Source of the DNA: an uncultured archaeon | GTDB lineage: Archaea > Asgardarchaeota > Thorarchaeia > Thorarchaeales > Thorarchaeaceae | DNA length: 17,545 nucleotides | Assembly: GCA_964590575.1 (NCBI GenBank) | Contig: CAZPWM010000065.1 | Coordinates: forward strand, 1 to 17,545 | Reading direction: 5' to 3' | Shown here: positions 2,955 through 17,545 of the stretch, piece by piece | Position numbering within the stretch: position 1 is the first letter of the stretch | How the letters are laid out: every line of letters begins with the position of its first letter | Position numbers and translations under genes: made by a program | The notes under the pieces: model-generated | What the model saw: only the letters and a program-made list of their open reading frames with translations | Told to the model about the DNA's origin: nothing | The model's database searches: none

Positions 2955-4847
2955 TTAGGAGTGGGCTTTGGTCCACTCCAATGAGAGTCTCTTAATTGTT
3001 TTTTCAGTTGGTAGCCCTGTTTCTAAGTCCCATCCTCGGAGTTTGTAGTAATCATCAAGCATTGGGTCAAGATTCACGGTCTGACCCTTGCCTGGACCCT
3101 CAGGCATTGGCTCTTTGGTGAATCGGTCAGGAAGATTATCATCCTTACGGGTGATTCCCTCTCGATTATTGAAGAGACGCTTTAGTGTGACTTGGCGTTC
3201 CGCAATCTCTACCAAATTCTCAACCTTGCCCAAGTACTTCTCTCCTGTTGCAAGTGGCAACATTTCCGCAAAGTCTTCCATCCAGAATATTGGAGGCCAA
3301 GATACTGAATACCAACAAACAATCAGCGTATCACGGATACAGTAAGAATTCTCGCTCTCAAAGACAGCGTTAGCCTTATGCTTCTCGGTATAGGGATCAA
3401 TGATTTCAGGAAGTTTGTCAGCGCCCCAACGTTTTGCAGCTACATCTTCATAGCCAAGCTGGTCTACCACAACCAAGCTTCTAAGATGGTCAGCACCTCT
3501 TGCAGCTGTTGCGTGCCCTAGTCCGATGCTTCGATGAGTGCGACCATCCTGGCCAGAAACTTCCATTCCTTTGACATGAATTGCATACTTCTCGGAGCTT
3601 TTTCCAATCGAGTCAGAAGCTCTTTTGCTTCCCTCAGCAAGTAGGTCTCCAAAACCCTCACGTTCTGCAATCATCTCTAATAGACGAATTGTTTGTTCTG
3701 GATTTCCCCATTCAAGGTTGAGACCCTTTGTATCCTTCTCGGTAATGAGACCATGCTCAAAAGCCTCGATAGCGAAACCAATGGTTGCTCCTGCGGAGAT
3801 TATATCCATCCCATAACGGTTGCAAATCTGATTCGCCTTCAATGTAGTAGCATAGTCATCAATACCAAGCAAACTTCCAAATGCCATTAGGCCCTCATAT
3901 TCAGGACCTTCCTCAAGCGTACCAGCAAATGGTCCAGTTTGGACATAGTTGACCTTCTTACATCCAAGACTGCATCCAAAACAAGCCCTGTCTGAGATTG
4001 TGAATCTCGGTCGTATATAGTCACCAGTCAGTTTCTCATATCCAGGAAAAACACCAGTACGATGGTTGTAGGTGGGCAATTCGCCAATTTCCTGTTTGAC
4101 TGCTGTCAGGATCCATGTCCCCCACTTACCCATCTCTTTAGCTTGTGGATTCTCACGGACGCGTGAATGTGCATTCTTTGCAAGCTCAAGGAATCCATCA
4201 TGGTCATGGACATCCACTCCGCCATGACCTCGAATCGCAATTGCCTTCACATTCTTAGAACCTAGAACAGCACCCATTCCTGTACGTCCAGCAGCTCGTG
4301 CATGGTTCACCAACACGGCAGCATACCGAACTAAGCGTTCACCAGCAGGACCAATAGCAGCTACCTGGATATCAGGGTCGTGATGTGCTTTTTTGATATT
4401 GATGGTTGTCTGATCAGTGGTCGTTCCCCATAACTCAGATGCATCACGAAGTTCGAGATGAGAATCTTCAATGTTGATATAGACAGGGCAATCTGATTTC
4501 CCTTCTACGACTAGCATGTCGTATCCAGCGTACTTTAACTCGGGACCTAGGAACCCTCCAACGTGACTCTCACCCCAGATTCCAGTCAGGGGGGCTTTCG
4601 AAATGAATACAGTCCGTCCGCTCATCGGCCACATAGTCCCTGTGATTGGGCCTGTAGCCACAATCAGTTTGTTATCTTCCCCCAGGGGGTCAGTACCGGT
4701 TGGTACTTCCTCATAGAGAAGCTTGACGCCAAAACCATCACCGCCAATATAGTCCTTCACCCACTCCTTTGGAAGAGGGTCTACATGGAATTCGTTAGCA
4801 CTTAGGTCAACTCGTAGGATTTTTCCCTTATAGCCACCAGCAGTCAC
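2955..4847 (-). CDS. aor: Tungsten-containing aldehyde:ferredoxin oxidoreductase family protein
   Basis: GKILRVDLS, KAPLTG, IGPAGE, AAGRTGMGAVLGSKNVKAI, CFGCSLGC, EGPEYE, GMDIISAG, RGADH, YYKLRGWD. GTG start lies 1 nt after the ferredoxin stop. Confidence 0.95.
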   Translation of the reverse strand: MTAGGYKGKILRVDLSANEFHVDPLPKEWVKDYIGGDGFGVKLLYEEVPTGTDPLGEDNKLIVATGPITGTMWPMSGRTVFISKAPLTGIWGESHVGGFLGPELKYAGYDMLVVEGKSDCPVYINIEDSHLELRDASELWGTTTDQTTINIKKAHHDPDIQVAAIGPAGERLVRYAAVLVNHARAAGRTGMGAVLGSKNVKAIAIRGHGGVDVHDHDGFLELAKNAHSRVRENPQAKEMGKWGTWILTAVKQEIGELPTYNHRTGVFPGYEKLTGDYIRPRFTISDRACFGCSLGCKKVNYVQTGPFAGTLEEGPEYEGLMAFGSLLGIDDYATTLKANQICNRYGMDIISAGATIGFAIEAFEHGLITEKDTKGLNLEWGNPEQTIRLLEMIAEREGFGDLLAEGSKRASDSIGKSSEKYAIHVKGMEVSGQDGRTHRSIGLGHATAARGADHLRSLVVVDQLGYEDVAAKRWGADKLPEIIDPYTEKHKANAVFESENSYCIRDTLIVCWYSVSWPPIFWMEDFAEMLPLATGEKYLGKVENLVEIAERQVTLKRLFNNREGITRKDDNLPDRFTKEPMPEGPGKGQTVNLDPMLDDYYKLRGWDLETGLPTEKTIKRLSLEWTKAHS

Positions 4848-4848
4848 T

Positions 4849-5349
4849 TCATTCAGCTCCGCTGGACTCCTGAGCAGTCCTCTCTATCTCTCTTAGATAA
4901 CTCGAAATCTTGCTATGTCGGTCAATTGAGGGAGCAATAGAAACATCGGTGTATGTTATTGCTCCGGTTGGACAAACCTTTGCACACTCAGGATCACCAC
5001 CGCAGTGATCACACTTTATTATCCTCATTCTAAGGGTGTCTAGTAGAATAACTCCGTTCACGCAAGCTCCAACACAGGACTTACAGAGTATGCACTTACT
5101 CTCATCGAGAAAGGTCATCTTTGAAACCGGGTCTCGGCGGATTGCATATACCGGGCATATATCAACACAGGGTGCTGTTTCACATGGACCACAGACATTG
5201 GGTAAGTCTATTCCAAGATCATCGTAACGGACTATCTTTAACCTAGCAAGACTTGGTTGGAACCGACCCTCGTTTTTTGCGGTGCATGCAAGTTCACATA
5301 TTCGGCAACCTGTGCATTTTGTGAAATCAACGACCAAATGTGATGGCAG
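4849..5349 (-). CDS. 4x[4Fe-4S] ferredoxin-like electron-transfer subunit (DmsB/HydN-like), AOR partner
   Basis: CTGCRICELAC, CGPCETAPCVDICP, CILCKSCVGAC, CDHCGGDPECAKVCP. Start is uncertain: GAGGTGG RBS at 5361-5355 points to CTG 5349 (or TTG 5337) rather than TTG 5382. Confidence 0.9.
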   Translation of the reverse strand: MPSHLVVDFTKCTGCRICELACTAKNEGRFQPSLARLKIVRYDDLGIDLPNVCGPCETAPCVDICPVYAIRRDPVSKMTFLDESKCILCKSCVGACVNGVILLDTLRMRIIKCDHCGGDPECAKVCPTGAITYTDVSIAPSIDRHSKISSYLREIERTAQESSGAE

Positions 5350-5458
5350 GAAAACCACCTCGACACTATGGCATTCTTGCAATTCTACACTAAAATGCTT
5401 CGGACCATCTATACGTTTTATTAGGTATCAAGTTCTACGAAGGAACGGGTTGAATACC

Positions 5459-14239: not shown

Positions 14240-15019
14240 GTGTATAAGATTTGTCTTACTAATGATGATGGGCCTCGTAGTGAGGGGATGCTAAACCTCG
14301 CAGAATTTCTGAGAAAAGAAGTAGAGCTGATTGTAGTAGTACCAGATGCACAGCGCAGTGCTACAGGAAAATCGTTGACTCTGACGAGACCAATAAGAAT
14401 TACTGAGAAACATGAGAAGTATGGATACCAGTTCGTATCTCACGATGGTGCACCTGCAGACTCTGTAATCCTTGCTCAAGCTTTCTATGAGGATATCGAT
14501 CTGGTGATATCAGGAATCAACTCAGGAGCCAATGTTGGGTATCAGAGTATGCTTACAAGCGGAACCGTAGGTGCTGCATTTGAAGCTGCAATCAGAGGTT
14601 TACCCGCAATCGCTGTATCTCGCCAAGCATCACCAAGTGATTGGTTTGGAGCTACGGGTTCAAACGGTGATTGTGAAAAAGCGTGTAGAATCACAAAGGA
14701 CCTTGTAATGAAAGTCCTTGAGAGAGGTATGCCTCAAGGGATAGATATGCTGAATTTAAACTTCCCACGTAATATCACAGAGAAATCAGAAGTGATAGTT
14801 ACAATACCAACGAAAGTCCGAATGCACAATGAGGTTGAACAACGTACAGATCCGAATGGTCGTCCCTATTACTGGTATCTGGGAATCGAGAGAGACCCTC
14901 AACCAAAGACAGACGCCTATGAAGTGTTTGTAAACGGGAACATTTCTCTCTCACCTGTTATACTTAATTGGATAGGTGAGAAGGAAGTCAAAATACTCGA
15001 AGAGTTCATGAAAGATTGA
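14240..15019 (+). CDS. surE: 5'/3'-nucleotidase SurE
   Basis: LTNDDG, QRSATGKSLT, GAPAD, VISGINSGAN, SGTVGAA, LNLNFP, DPNGRPYYW, ISLSP. GTG start with a GGAG RBS. Confidence 0.95.
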   Translation: MYKICLTNDDGPRSEGMLNLAEFLRKEVELIVVVPDAQRSATGKSLTLTRPIRITEKHEKYGYQFVSHDGAPADSVILAQAFYEDIDLVISGINSGANVGYQSMLTSGTVGAAFEAAIRGLPAIAVSRQASPSDWFGATGSNGDCEKACRITKDLVMKVLERGMPQGIDMLNLNFPRNITEKSEVIVTIPTKVRMHNEVEQRTDPNGRPYYWYLGIERDPQPKTDAYEVFVNGNISLSPVILNWIGEKEVKILEEFMKD

Positions 15020-16016
15020 TTTTCTTCAAAGCATCCCACAAAGCATCTACTGTCGGTCGCCGAAGAGAGAGTCCATCGGAATCAGTTATCATTATTCTGT
15101 GGTTAGGATTCTCTACAATCGTACCAATAACACTCGCAGAAACACCTCTCGATTGGATGGTGTTCACTACTTCAGTAGTGTTTTCTTCATTGCAGCAGAT
15201 AATCATGCAACCACTACTGATCAACTCCATTGGATTGATATCTAGTGCATCGCAGATTGTTTTTGTAATATCATAAATGGGAATTGCATCCTTGTAAATC
15301 TCAAATCCAACGTTACTAGCATCACATATCTCATGCAATCCCCCAGATAATCCTCCTTCAGTAGGATCATGCATTGCAGTCACAAAACCAGTCTTGTATG
15401 CAGCAACTCCTTCAGCAACTACACTAATCTCTGCTCGCAAAGCCATTGCTTTCGCAACAACTTCAAATCCAACCTTAGGAATAAGATAGTCTTTACCTTC
15501 GGTGGCAAGTATTGCTGTACCCTCAAGCGCTATTGATTTTGTCAGTATGATTGAATCTCCAGGTCGTGTACCACTCGAAGTAACGTATTCCCCTTGTTCA
15601 GCTATTCCAATCATGAACCCTGCAATTATAGGACGATTTATTCCCTTTGTCACCTCGGAGTGGCCTCCTGCAACAGCAATGCCAAGGATTTGCGCAGCAT
15701 CATCAATTTGTTTCATGATATGTCCTAGCTCTTCAGGAGTGGTTTTTTCGGGTAATATTATCGAAACCAGGAACCATCGCGGCTGAACTCCAAACGTCGC
15801 GATATCATTTGCATTGACATGAACTGCAAGCCAACCAACATCTGCGACAGATCCTGTTATGGGATCGGTTGCTGTTATGATGACCTTGTTACCAACACGT
15901 ATTACTGAAGCATCTTCGCCTATACTAGGACCAAGCAGGATGTCAGGGTCTTTCGTTCCCAGATTTGCAAACACTATCTTCTGAAGGATTTCGGGGGGTA
16001 CTTTGCCTGAGAGCAT
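15006..16016 (-). CDS. AIR synthase (PurM/HypE/ThiL/SelD superfamily) related protein of unknown substrate
   Basis: GKV, GPSIGEDASV, ATDPITG, VNANDIA, GGHSE, AMHDPTEGG, LISSG. GAGGTGA RBS (16031-16025) places the start at ATG 16016 rather than 16082. Confidence 0.9.
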   Translation of the reverse strand: MLSGKVPPEILQKIVFANLGTKDPDILLGPSIGEDASVIRVGNKVIITATDPITGSVADVGWLAVHVNANDIATFGVQPRWFLVSIILPEKTTPEELGHIMKQIDDAAQILGIAVAGGHSEVTKGINRPIIAGFMIGIAEQGEYVTSSGTRPGDSIILTKSIALEGTAILATEGKDYLIPKVGFEVVAKAMALRAEISVVAEGVAAYKTGFVTAMHDPTEGGLSGGLHEICDASNVGFEIYKDAIPIYDITKTICDALDINPMELISSGCMIICCNEENTTEVVNTIQSRGVSASVIGTIVENPNHRIMITDSDGLSLRRPTVDALWDALKKINLS

Positions 16017-16019
16017 GCC

Positions 16020-16150
16020 AACCATCACCTCAATGGTAGGTGCGCACAGCTCCTGTGCCTGATGCATGAAAAGCAGATTCATAGTAACCCAATACTGGGC
16101 GCTCCTCGCTCACTATGACACCAGGTATTTTTCGGATCTTGTGCGCATAT
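16020..16150 (-). ncRNA. Candidate structured cis-regulatory RNA in the 5' leader of the AIR-synthase-family gene
   Basis: Nested stems of 8, 7, 9 and 4 bp, with G-U pairs valid only on the minus strand. Alternative hairpins overlap the RBS. Confidence 0.5.
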
Positions 16151-16205
16151 CAGAAAACGAGTGTGTACTAATAACATAATCGAGAGAGGCAGCTTCGTTG
16201 TGCAA

Positions 16206-17545
16206 TCACTTAGGGAGATAATCTTCAACTTGGCGTATGTCCTGTTCACGTAACCTACTTCTTGAAAGACTGGAACTAAGTATTGTACTAAGTATAGAGG
16301 TTTCTTTCAATAGCTCACGTGAAAGGTATGCTCGACCACCTGCTGCTCTAGCGACAAGATAAGCACCAAATGTCTTTCGAAATTCATCAACCATGAGGAT
16401 GGTTTCAATAGGGTCATGCAGTCCTTCCTTTTTCATCCTTAGCATGGAAGCTAACTCAAGGGCTTCGTGATATGGACGTTTTAAGAACTGCGGCCATTTC
16501 GACTGTTCTGGATCAACATTCACTGCAGCTAACCGCACTTTTGCTTTCCTGACCAAACGTGCGGTGCGGACTAGGTCTTGAACTGGAGTGAATCTATCAT
16601 GACCAGGACCAACGGATTGAGCAAGTGGGATATTTGGAGAGAAATCTGAAATAAGTATCAGGAGTGGTTCGATGTCATTATTCCTCATTCGTTCTCGTCG
16701 AATAGTTTCAAGCGACTTCTTCAGTGCTTCTGCCAGTGGTGTAAGTCCAGAAATCTTCAATCTGCCTAATGCACGATAGATCTTATTCCAGTTTGTTGTT
16801 GGTGCCTGTATCTCAACTGCGCCACTATCCTTGAATGCGACAATTCCAGTACGGTCTTTGGACCCCCGGGTTTCACTCTCTAAGCGTTCTAGAAATTCTC
16901 GAACTTGGTCCATGCTCCCTTTCATTGATAGACTTACATCGATAACTAGAATGATTGTCAATGGAGTCCTACCTGTGAACACACTTTCGCGAAGATCAGC
17001 TTTTGTGATTTCTATGGAACCCCCGGATGTGAAACCGGTTCGTGCAACAGCAGCCAGTACAGTGGATGGAATATGAAGACTTCCAGGTTCTCTGGTAGGA
17101 ATTCGTGACCGAATAGGTCTGCCATGTTTCATTGTGTCGGATGACTTCAGAGACCCGGCTGCTCTAGAGCTAACTCTCTTTTTTACCCAACCTCCTGATG
17201 AAACCCGAGCTCGAATCATCGCTCTCTTTCTTAGCTTATCAAGGTCGAATAGCTCTTCTCCGGTGTCGATGTCAGGCATCTTAACAAAGAAGCTATCTGC
17301 CAAACCAAAGGGAGCTTCTCTTATCTCTGATTTCGAACCAGACACCATATCGGGAGTCTGAGGTGTATAAGGTCTCGTGGCTAAACCCCATTCATCACCA
17401 GGCTCTGGTTTTCCACCCCCAGGTTCTACTGTGTCAATACCAGCAGCAGGTCCACTGTTTCTTCGTGTCATAACATTAAGCCATTTTCTCACGAGATACC
17501 AAATCACGGGTGTAATGACTATTGTGTCGATAATCAGAGCGGGTG
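16206..17545 (-). CDS. vWA (MIDAS) domain protein, ChlD/BchD C-terminal-like, with an upstream hydrophobic segment; 5'-truncated by the window
   Basis: VIDVSLSM (DxSxS), GLTPLA, LISD. The frame stays open to the window edge (PALIIDTIVITPVIWYLVRK...), so 17507 is probably not the real start. Confidence 0.85.
   Translation of the reverse strand, partial: PALIIDTIVITPVIWYLVRKWLNVMTRRNSGPAAGIDTVEPGGGKPEPGDEWGLATRPYTPQTPDMVSGSKSEIREAPFGLADSFFVKMPDIDTGEELFDLDKLRKRAMIRARVSSGGWVKKRVSSRAAGSLKSSDTMKHGRPIRSRIPTREPGSLHIPSTVLAAVARTGFTSGGSIEITKADLRESVFTGRTPLTIILVIDVSLSMKGSMDQVREFLERLESETRGSKDRTGIVAFKDSGAVEIQAPTTNWNKIYRALGRLKISGLTPLAEALKKSLETIRRERMRNNDIEPLLILISDFSPNIPLAQSVGPGHDRFTPVQDLVRTARLVRKAKVRLAAVNVDPEQSKWPQFLKRPYHEALELASMLRMKKEGLHDPIETILMVDEFRKTFGAYLVARAAGGRAYLSRELLKETSILSTILSSSLSRSRLREQDIRQVEDYLPK

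Follow-up and report, generated by a model that had tools for sequence, protein, structure and literature searches.

On the minus strand of a 17,545-nucleotide (nt) stretch of DNA from an uncultured archaeon of the family Thorarchaeaceae (positions 1 to 17,545 of contig CAZPWM010000065.1, assembly GCA_964590575.1; this whole stretch is referred to as the window), a spacer of approximately 190 nt lies between the stop of a gene encoding a VWA-domain protein (16206) and the start of a gene of the PurM superfamily (16016). An earlier inspection of the DNA without database searches, referred to here as the sequence-only reading, had remarked on the 190-nt length of the spacer, which is correct, and had placed in it a riboswitch-like, multi-stem leader of an orphan enzyme of the PurM family; when the coordinates were re-derived, every string that it listed was found again on the minus strand at the position given. 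Comparison of orthologous leaders now delimits a 114-nt RNA motif (window 16149-16036, minus strand), whose covariation confirms that the enzyme gene is preceded, on the mRNA strand, by a conserved multi-stem leader. This motif represents a real structured-RNA family, undescribed as far as Rfam 15 and literature searches go, and is read here as a structured cis-regulatory leader, which most likely controls the enzyme gene in cis.

The evidence for the fold is comparative, a single sequence proving nothing in this case because the 186-nt spacer is not, on its own, unusually stable (z -0.33 for the mRNA strand, -0.70 for the other strand). For the delimited 114-nt motif the minimum free energy, with respect to that of dinucleotide shuffles, corresponds to z -1.8 in the window and to a mean z of -4.0 over 82 relatives. 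Covariation was evaluated on 83 distinct sequences, which are related and not independent, with 500 shuffles and slid controls; the counts out of 83 given throughout refer to this set. In these sequences 91.6% of the cells are paired and 26 of the 36 pairs change on both sides, whereas none of the 500 shuffles reaches any of four covariation measures and every slid control is far lower, so that the covariation in orthologous leaders, which the sequence-only reading had indicated as the check to be made, is clear. The same covariation signal was obtained from a structure-blind MAFFT alignment of the genus. Three of the proposed helices are recovered. Changes on both sides affect 12 of 13 pairs in P0, 7 of 9 in P1 and 4 of 5 in P3 (16100-16096 with 16091-16087); the paired cells amount to 95.7% in P0 and 93.7% in P3, and the loop of P3 varies in sequence. 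Approximately 45 positions of the motif are invariant or nearly so. As judged from the alignment, the invariance of unpaired and non-canonical positions, while the helices around them covary, is a pattern typical of aptamers. An all-pairs mutual-information scan gave no convincing extra tertiary pair.

The core of the motif differs from that initially proposed. The sequence-only reading had placed here a helix, P2 (UCAUAGUGA/UUACUAUGA), and a possible pseudoknot (GAGGAGCG/UGCUUUUC). None of the six pairs of P2 covaries, and changes at two positions disrupt the pairing, in 9 and in 53 of the 70 sequences compared; in the pseudoknot one of seven pairs covaries and two others are broken in 21 and 18 of the 70 sequences. 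Because variation breaks these pairs without compensation, both were rejected as the conserved core. The two stretches that are invariant or nearly so (82-83 of 83), CAUAGUGAG and CUUUUCAU, are instead opposed in an irregular helix with fixed A.C and U.U mismatches and G.U pairs. Beyond it, the variable stretch of the core forms a short helix that covaries (at one pair, UA in 35 and CG in 25 of 83 sequences), and the pairs 48-79 (AU in 56 and UA in 8 of 83) and 47-80 (paired in 62 of 83) of this non-canonical (NC) helix fit the register of a kink-turn. In the bulged strand of the latter a C and, after one variable base, AUGA show little or no variation (82-83 of 83); the bulge belongs to the N-A-U type (UAU in the window, GAU in 42 of 83); tandem G.A and A.G are opposed, and -1b:-1n is C:G, in all 83 sequences; 3n is G in 72 and 3b:3n is A.G in 56. 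The C helix starts with the C:G pair that closes the bulge, followed by an A-U pair in 56 of 83 sequences, and leads into P3 after a bulge of 1-2 nt. A plain continuation of the inner helix ('Register A') was also considered and set aside, since it fits better than the kink-turn register in 13 sequences and worse in 34, with 36 tied. On sequence grounds, an irregular helix followed by a sequence-perfect kink-turn fits the core better than the helix and pseudoknot of the sequence-only reading.

The kink-turn, as it is defined in Huang et al. 2019 (PMC6298567), is found here at the level of sequence signature. In the folding rules set out there, G at 3n and C:G at -1b:-1n allow a kink-turn to fold with metal ions alone, a property typical of architectural kink-turns, and, because the motif has both, its kink-turn is predicted by these rules to fold in this way. 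The coordinates of the elements discussed here and below are collected in table 1.

Table 1. Elements of the leader and flanking features, in window coordinates; counts refer to the 83-sequence set.
Feature	Position	Strand	Sequence and remarks
VWA-domain gene	16206-17543		Upstream of the leader
Promoter-like box	16165..16185	minus	Consensus CTCGATTA-nn-TTATTA; read as an archaeal B recognition element (BRE)/TATA pair
P0, 5' strand	16134..16147	minus	UGCGCACAAGAUCC; pairs with 16053-16041
Internal loop 1, 5' side	16128..16133	minus	GAAAAA; near-invariant G (79/83), next A (76/83), and A two positions beyond GA (73/83)
P1, 5' strand	16119..16127	minus	UACCUGGUG; pairs with 16064-16056
Core, 5' strand	16105..16118	minus	Invariant UCAUAGUGAG plus variable stretch; irregular and NC helix
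Kink-turn, non-bulged strand	16101..16104	minus	G2n, A1n, then -1n G, -2n; GAG in 83/83
P3 hairpin	16087..16100	minus	GCCCA-GUAU-UGGGU; outer part of the C helix of the kink-turn
Kink-turn, bulged strand	16079..16086	minus	UAC (end of C helix), 3-nt bulge, G1b, A2b
Core, 3' strand	16065..16078	minus	AUCUG-CUUUUCAUG; NC and irregular helix
P1, 3' strand	16056..16064	minus	CAUCAGGCA; pairs with P1, 5' strand
Internal loop 1, 3' side	16054..16055	minus	CA; part of ACA, each base 83/83
P0, 3' strand	16041..16053	minus	GGAGCUGUGCGCA; pairs with P0, 5' strand
C-rich tail after P0	16036..16040	minus	CCUAC; first C 83/83, second C 70/83
Shine-Dalgarno-like sequence	16026..16031	minus	GAGGUG; purine-rich run (GGAG, GAGG or GGUG) before the start in nearly all orthologous loci listed
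PurM-superfamily gene (regulated gene)	15006..16016	minus	336 amino acids (aa); Pfam AIRS and AIRS_C

The distribution of the motif is narrow and regular. A scan of the whole window with Rfam 15 at gathering thresholds gave no matches, in agreement with the statement of the sequence-only reading that the leader does not fit the TPP, ZTP, fluoride, SAM, cobalamin or FMN consensus; with E values up to 10 over 15900-16300, the sole Rfam match was to a vertebrate long non-coding RNA model on the other strand, with an irrelevant 7.4 bits. In its own genome the motif is present in a single copy by both BLAST and covariance model, which excludes a dispersed repeat, such as the miniature inverted-repeat transposable element that had also been considered. 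A covariance model built from the genus matches 25 of its 28 genomes and, across the class of the window, finds the motif in 74 of 87 genomes and in 15 of the 17 genera of the family (f1), always once per genome. When a family-wide model was applied to a sample of the phylum, 22 of 26 genomes of the family matched, that of the window being excluded, and among 124 other genomes of the phylum there was only one match, at 20 bits, which is at chance level. The exact core pattern occurs in 67 stretches of 185,579 species genomes, with titles that are nearly all Thorarchaeota, Promethearchaeota or uncultured archaeon and one Hermodarchaeota, and a pattern of this kind is also present in 41 metagenome contigs. 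Orthologues of the PurM-like gene are found in 37 of 41 related genomes, that of the window included. Across 21 other congeneric species, conservation of the leader, which contains long invariant runs, exceeds that of the coding sequence (58-82% identity at the level of the protein).

Equally constant is the position of the motif. Its end falls 14-30 nt ahead of the start (ATG, TTG or GTG) of one and the same PurM-superfamily gene in 73 of 74 loci, the 74th locus being cut by the end of the contig; in nearly all of the loci listed, a GGAG, GAGG or GGUG run is found between the motif and the start codon. Pattern scanning gave 108 further loci, in 102 of which the motif is immediately followed by this gene, and 4 others are cut by contig ends. 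Two pattern-scan loci (L210 and L218) were discarded as chance pattern matches, having no match to the covariance model. On the other side of the motif, the sequence CGAT[TG]NNNTT[AT]T is found in 62 of the 74 loci, always 32-35 nt before the motif, and variants of it in most of the other 12; a stricter 14-nt pattern of the box, CTCGATTANNTTAT, matches only once in the 3.4-Mb genome. This box may act as a promoter, and the geometry of archaeal TATA boxes would put the start of transcription, measured from its TTATTA, TTTATA or TTATAT part, at the foot of P0.

The order AAA+, VWA, leader, PurM-like gene and convergent SurE gene is conserved in the family, in which the VWA gene adjoins the leader in 68 of 74 loci and the AAA+ gene was seen in one locus. 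In the phylum outside this family, orthologues were examined at 7 loci with flanks of 1.5 kb, and none had the VWA gene next to it. For this reason a functional link of the enzyme with the upstream AAA+ and VWA genes was dropped, and the enzyme gene was treated as a unit of its own; that it forms its own transcription unit agrees with its position between the promoter-like box and the convergent SurE gene against which it ends. The VWA gene (16206-17543) resembles the C-terminal part of chelatase subunit D, and in one locus (L109:8258-11244) it is preceded by the gene of a ChlI/MoxR-like AAA+ ATPase, giving an ATPase-plus-VWA pair. Elsewhere in the window (2955-5382, minus strand), an aldehyde:ferredoxin oxidoreductase gene adjoins a 4Fe-4S ferredoxin-like gene, which looks like ordinary anaerobe metabolism.

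The enzyme itself belongs to an uncharacterized branch of the PurM superfamily, from which 6,039 database proteins were scored at E 1e-20 or lower among 8,000 candidates, and reaches the cut-off of none of the NCBIfam equivalogs. Among solved structures, HypE proteins are closest to it (E 4e-22). HypE requires a C-terminal cysteine, and the identification of the enzyme as HypE was rejected: it ends ...KKINLS, lacking the terminal Cys, and scores 129 bits with TIGR02124 against a cut-off of 251.6, with a separate true HypE (367 bits) in the genome. ThiL (100 bits, cut-off 184) and SelD (101 bits, cut-off 125), each with a separate gene in the genome, and PurM (42 bits, cut-off 236) were also rejected as identities. 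The paralogues that the genome encodes separately from the gene of the leader are ThiL, HypE, SelD, PurL and an sll0787-like protein. A protein atlas search returned nothing beyond 'AIR synthase family', and the neighbours of the orthologues in other lineages (DFP, arginine decarboxylase, HMG-CoA reductase, HAD, tRNA synthetase, methyltransferase, GHMP kinase, TldD and aminotransferase) gave no consistent pathway hint. Neither canonical PurM (TIGR00878) nor PurF (TIGR01134) was found above its cut-off in the genome, which is 91% complete and contains a gene for a PurL-like protein of 735 aa; the orphan enzyme could conceivably fill this gap in the purine pathway. As to the SelD homologue (G000:C4:61888-62721, L107), it aligns to its NCBIfam model only from profile position 42-45 approximately, as would be the case if open reading frame (ORF) calling had cut off an N-terminal part at a UGA for selenocysteine. 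The use of selenocysteine by Thorarchaeia is reported in PMC11227280.

With conservation, covariation, position and the kink-turn sequence signature of the leader established, the question is what it may respond to. Binding of a small molecule is the leading prediction, to which we assign a probability close to, but short of, one half. The invariant loops combined with covarying stems, the size of the RNA, its location beside the ribosome-binding site and a target gene that encodes an enzyme agree with a riboswitch aptamer. As in riboswitches in general, a conserved RNA supported by covariation precedes the gene that would be regulated, its location relative to the start of transcription being deduced from the promoter-like box. 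The riboswitch idea of the sequence-only reading is therefore kept as the leading but unproven one, and its detailed core and switch model are to be replaced by the kink-turn model. More specifically, and somewhat more tentatively, the kink-turn aptamer may be the first Asgard-specific riboswitch class, sensing a substrate, a product or a cofactor of the PurM/HypE-like ATP-dependent enzyme.

A pathway for such control may be proposed as follows. Transcription would probably start approximately 25 nt after the TATA-like box, i.e. at the foot of P0. The RNA would then form a long rod made of P0 (approx. 13 base pairs), the conserved asymmetric internal loop, P1 (approx. 9 base pairs) and the invariant irregular helix, and continuing into the short covarying helix, the kink-turn and the P3 hairpin. 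By bending the rod, the kink may lay P3 back along the invariant helix and, through docking of the two, generate a compact pocket. An effector, most likely a small molecule linked to the pathway of the enzyme, would bind to the folded core and stabilize P0, the 3' strand of which ends approximately 19-35 nt before the start codon. The stabilization of P0 would in turn alter how readily the ribosome reaches the Shine-Dalgarno sequence beside it, perhaps by way of the conserved CACC(U) tail, in a direction that could be either activating or repressing.

Several observations weigh against a small-molecule switch. Some concern the switching step, as no conserved expression platform was found among the pairings examined. 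The hairpin GCACAG/CUGUGC, which the sequence-only reading had proposed as the structure that excludes P0, can be paired in 77% of the cells, with no covarying pairs and a score equal to that of shuffles, and was given up. Hairpins between the 3' strand of P0 and the ribosome-binding region have no greater stability than shuffles (71 sequences, mean z -0.12). The proposed pairing of CACCU with the AGGUG of the ribosome-binding site holds in the window and in close relatives, but family-wide it is only marginally better than in shuffles: the duplex of the tail with the Shine-Dalgarno sequence has -3.9 versus -3.35 kcal/mol, and at least 4 contiguous pairs in 51 of 82 sequences against 43 expected, with a p-value that overstates the effect because the sequences are related. 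Although this pairing signal is weak, the C-rich tail CCUAC may be an anti-Shine-Dalgarno element. In P0 not only the pairing but also the sequence is conserved, and this suggests recognition that is specific to the sequence. The association of the motif is also narrow, being limited to one gene family, with one copy per genome, in one taxonomic family, and most validated riboswitch classes control several genes. Furthermore, the motif is dispensable in one genus, g28, where three genomes that are 96-99% complete (L117-L119) are matched by neither covariance model and retain the gene and the synteny: the VWA gene, the PurM-like gene and SurE are kept, with a different leader of similar length (approx. 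115 nt) that contains several ATGA repeats. Finally, binding of L7Ae is to be expected in archaea for a rod-shaped RNA that carries a kink-turn.

Two further observations concern the same leaders. The promoter-like box is conserved in the g28 genomes, exactly in two of the three and as a variant in the third. In four loci of another genus, g25 (L056, L057, L062 and L067), the Shine-Dalgarno sequence is immediately followed by a copy of GCGCA or GUGCA, a potential partner of the P0 3' strand, and a clade-specific alternative pairing that competes for this strand is possible there.

Among the other explanations, the most serious is that a protein, rather than a small molecule, binds to the leader and sets the translation or the stability of the mRNA; we consider it unlikely on balance, yet a rival to be reckoned with because of the kink-turn, the rod-like shape, the association with one gene and the narrow distribution. 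Candidates would be L7Ae at the kink-turn, the PurM-like enzyme itself in an autoregulatory circuit, or another RNA-binding protein that recognizes the invariant irregular helix. The invariance of the kink-turn signature, the presence of two L7Ae-family proteins encoded in the genome, the one-to-one correspondence of motif and gene within a narrow clade and the sequence conservation of P0 all agree with it, and archaeal L7Ae is reported (PMC5539422, PMC6298567) to act as a translational repressor on 5' leaders whose kink-turns have a GAU bulge. However, conservation extends far beyond the kink-turn, to the approximately 45 positions mentioned above; the kink-turn is more than 50 nt from the Shine-Dalgarno sequence; the gene product is an enzyme and not a component of an RNA-protein particle; and G at 3n with C:G at -1b:-1n predicts folding without protein, whereas the kink-turns of l7ae leaders are predicted, by the account given in PMC6298567, not to fold alone. 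An effector may also be dispensed with altogether if the leader is a constitutive mRNA stabilizer, a processing or translation-enhancing element or a thermometer. The lack of a conserved alternative pairing among those examined, the stable fold (mean z -4.0) and the fact that genus g28 does without the motif would be accounted for in this way, but neither simple stabilizers nor thermometers need a kink-turn or so many invariant positions in loops and non-canonical pairs, and this explanation has a low probability.

Less probable still is an independent small RNA gene with its own promoter that happens to lie upstream of the enzyme gene, and whose product may be part of a kink-turn ribonucleoprotein. 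The conserved promoter-like box at a fixed distance, the compact length of 114 nt and the kink-turn, a feature of many archaeal small RNAs, are what such a gene would have. On the other hand, no U run was found after P0, no second promoter for the enzyme gene is evident in the space between the motif and the start, and the motif is never found elsewhere in a genome; in 73 of 74 loci its 3' end is separated by a narrow range of distances, 14-30 nt, from the start codon of a single gene. It is hardly credible, finally, that the conservation reflects an N-terminal extension or a small upstream ORF (MNLLFMH...), or that the fold is due to chance. The coding alternative arises from the fact that the longest ORF at the PurM-like gene opens at ATG 16082, within the RNA motif and, in the window, in frame with the gene, this ATG being the AUG of the invariant AUGA of the kink-turn; moreover, many homologues in the database are annotated at 353, 358 or 373 aa, as if they started upstream of the start that gives 336 aa, the length of many others. 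But upstream of the conserved ATG the leaders of the orthologues are interrupted by in-frame stops and by indels that shift the frame, so that the true start is ATG 16016-16014, as also indicated by comparison of the orthologues, and not ATG 16082 or ATG 16025; and the substitutions in the helices are compensatory rather than synonymous. The upstream ORF and the N-terminal extension were dropped on account of these stops and frameshifts. The longer annotations of the homologues (353-373 aa), together with the ORF start inside the motif, suggest that gene callers often extend the PurM-like ORF into the leader. Such extended starts would hide the RNA, and their correction would improve annotation.

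Returning to the small-molecule reading, the comparative support is unusually clean, which makes the motif ready for biochemical testing. Whatever it turns out to be, the effector of the leader would give a direct lead to the chemistry of the uncharacterized branch of the PurM superfamily. The number of riboswitch classes known in archaea is small, and none described as Asgard-specific was found in the titles and abstract openings listed by a full-text literature search on Asgard and riboswitches; searches of the literature on Thorarchaeota, non-coding RNA and archaeal RNA motifs gave nothing relevant. If the leader is indeed an Asgard-specific riboswitch, the identity of its ligand would also reveal the function of a protein family that is widespread in archaea and bacteria.

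Among the systems with which the motif may be compared, the Asgard SECIS-like (selenocysteine insertion sequence-like) elements (PMC11227280) share with it the occurrence in Thorarchaeia and a hairpin with an AUGA...GA kink-turn quartet. They differ in that they reside in the 3' untranslated regions of selenoprotein genes and carry AUGA on the 5' strand, whereas the motif is a 5' leader with AUGA on the 3' strand. A SECIS element was dropped as an identification on account of this location and of the downstream gene, which has no in-frame UGA after the conserved start.

The L7Ae-responsive switches, in the features given for them in Daume et al. 2017 (PMC5539422) and in PMC6298567, are similarly archaeal 5' leaders, with translation as the likely level of control, and have an N-A-U bulge (GAU in 42 of 83 sequences of the motif) followed by tandem G:A and A:G. 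The known ones are described in PMC6298567 as weak stem-loops of small size, in which the kink-turn adjoins the Shine-Dalgarno sequence, and are predicted there not to fold without protein. Unlike in these switches, the kink-turn of the motif is apical in a conserved fold of 114 nt, is predicted under the same folding rules to fold with ions alone (G at 3n in 72 of 83 sequences and C:G at -1b:-1n in all), and precedes the gene of a PurM-family enzyme instead of l7ae or the gene of a particle-assembly factor. Neither their folding behaviour nor the position of their Shine-Dalgarno sequence is found here: the bulged-strand GA is at 16080-16079 and the Shine-Dalgarno sequence at 16031-16026, more than 50 nt away, with strands of P1 and P0 in between.

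The SAM-I and lysine riboswitches are examples of metabolite riboswitches with an architectural kink-turn. With respect to these, the motif has no Rfam match, is an unbranched rod rather than a multi-helix junction, has no conserved expression platform among the pairings examined, and is confined to one gene and one clade. Like them, however, it is a structured 5' leader of an enzyme gene, in which covarying helices surround invariant unpaired nucleotides, the sequence of the kink-turn predicts folding independent of protein, and the whole lies close to the ribosome-binding site.

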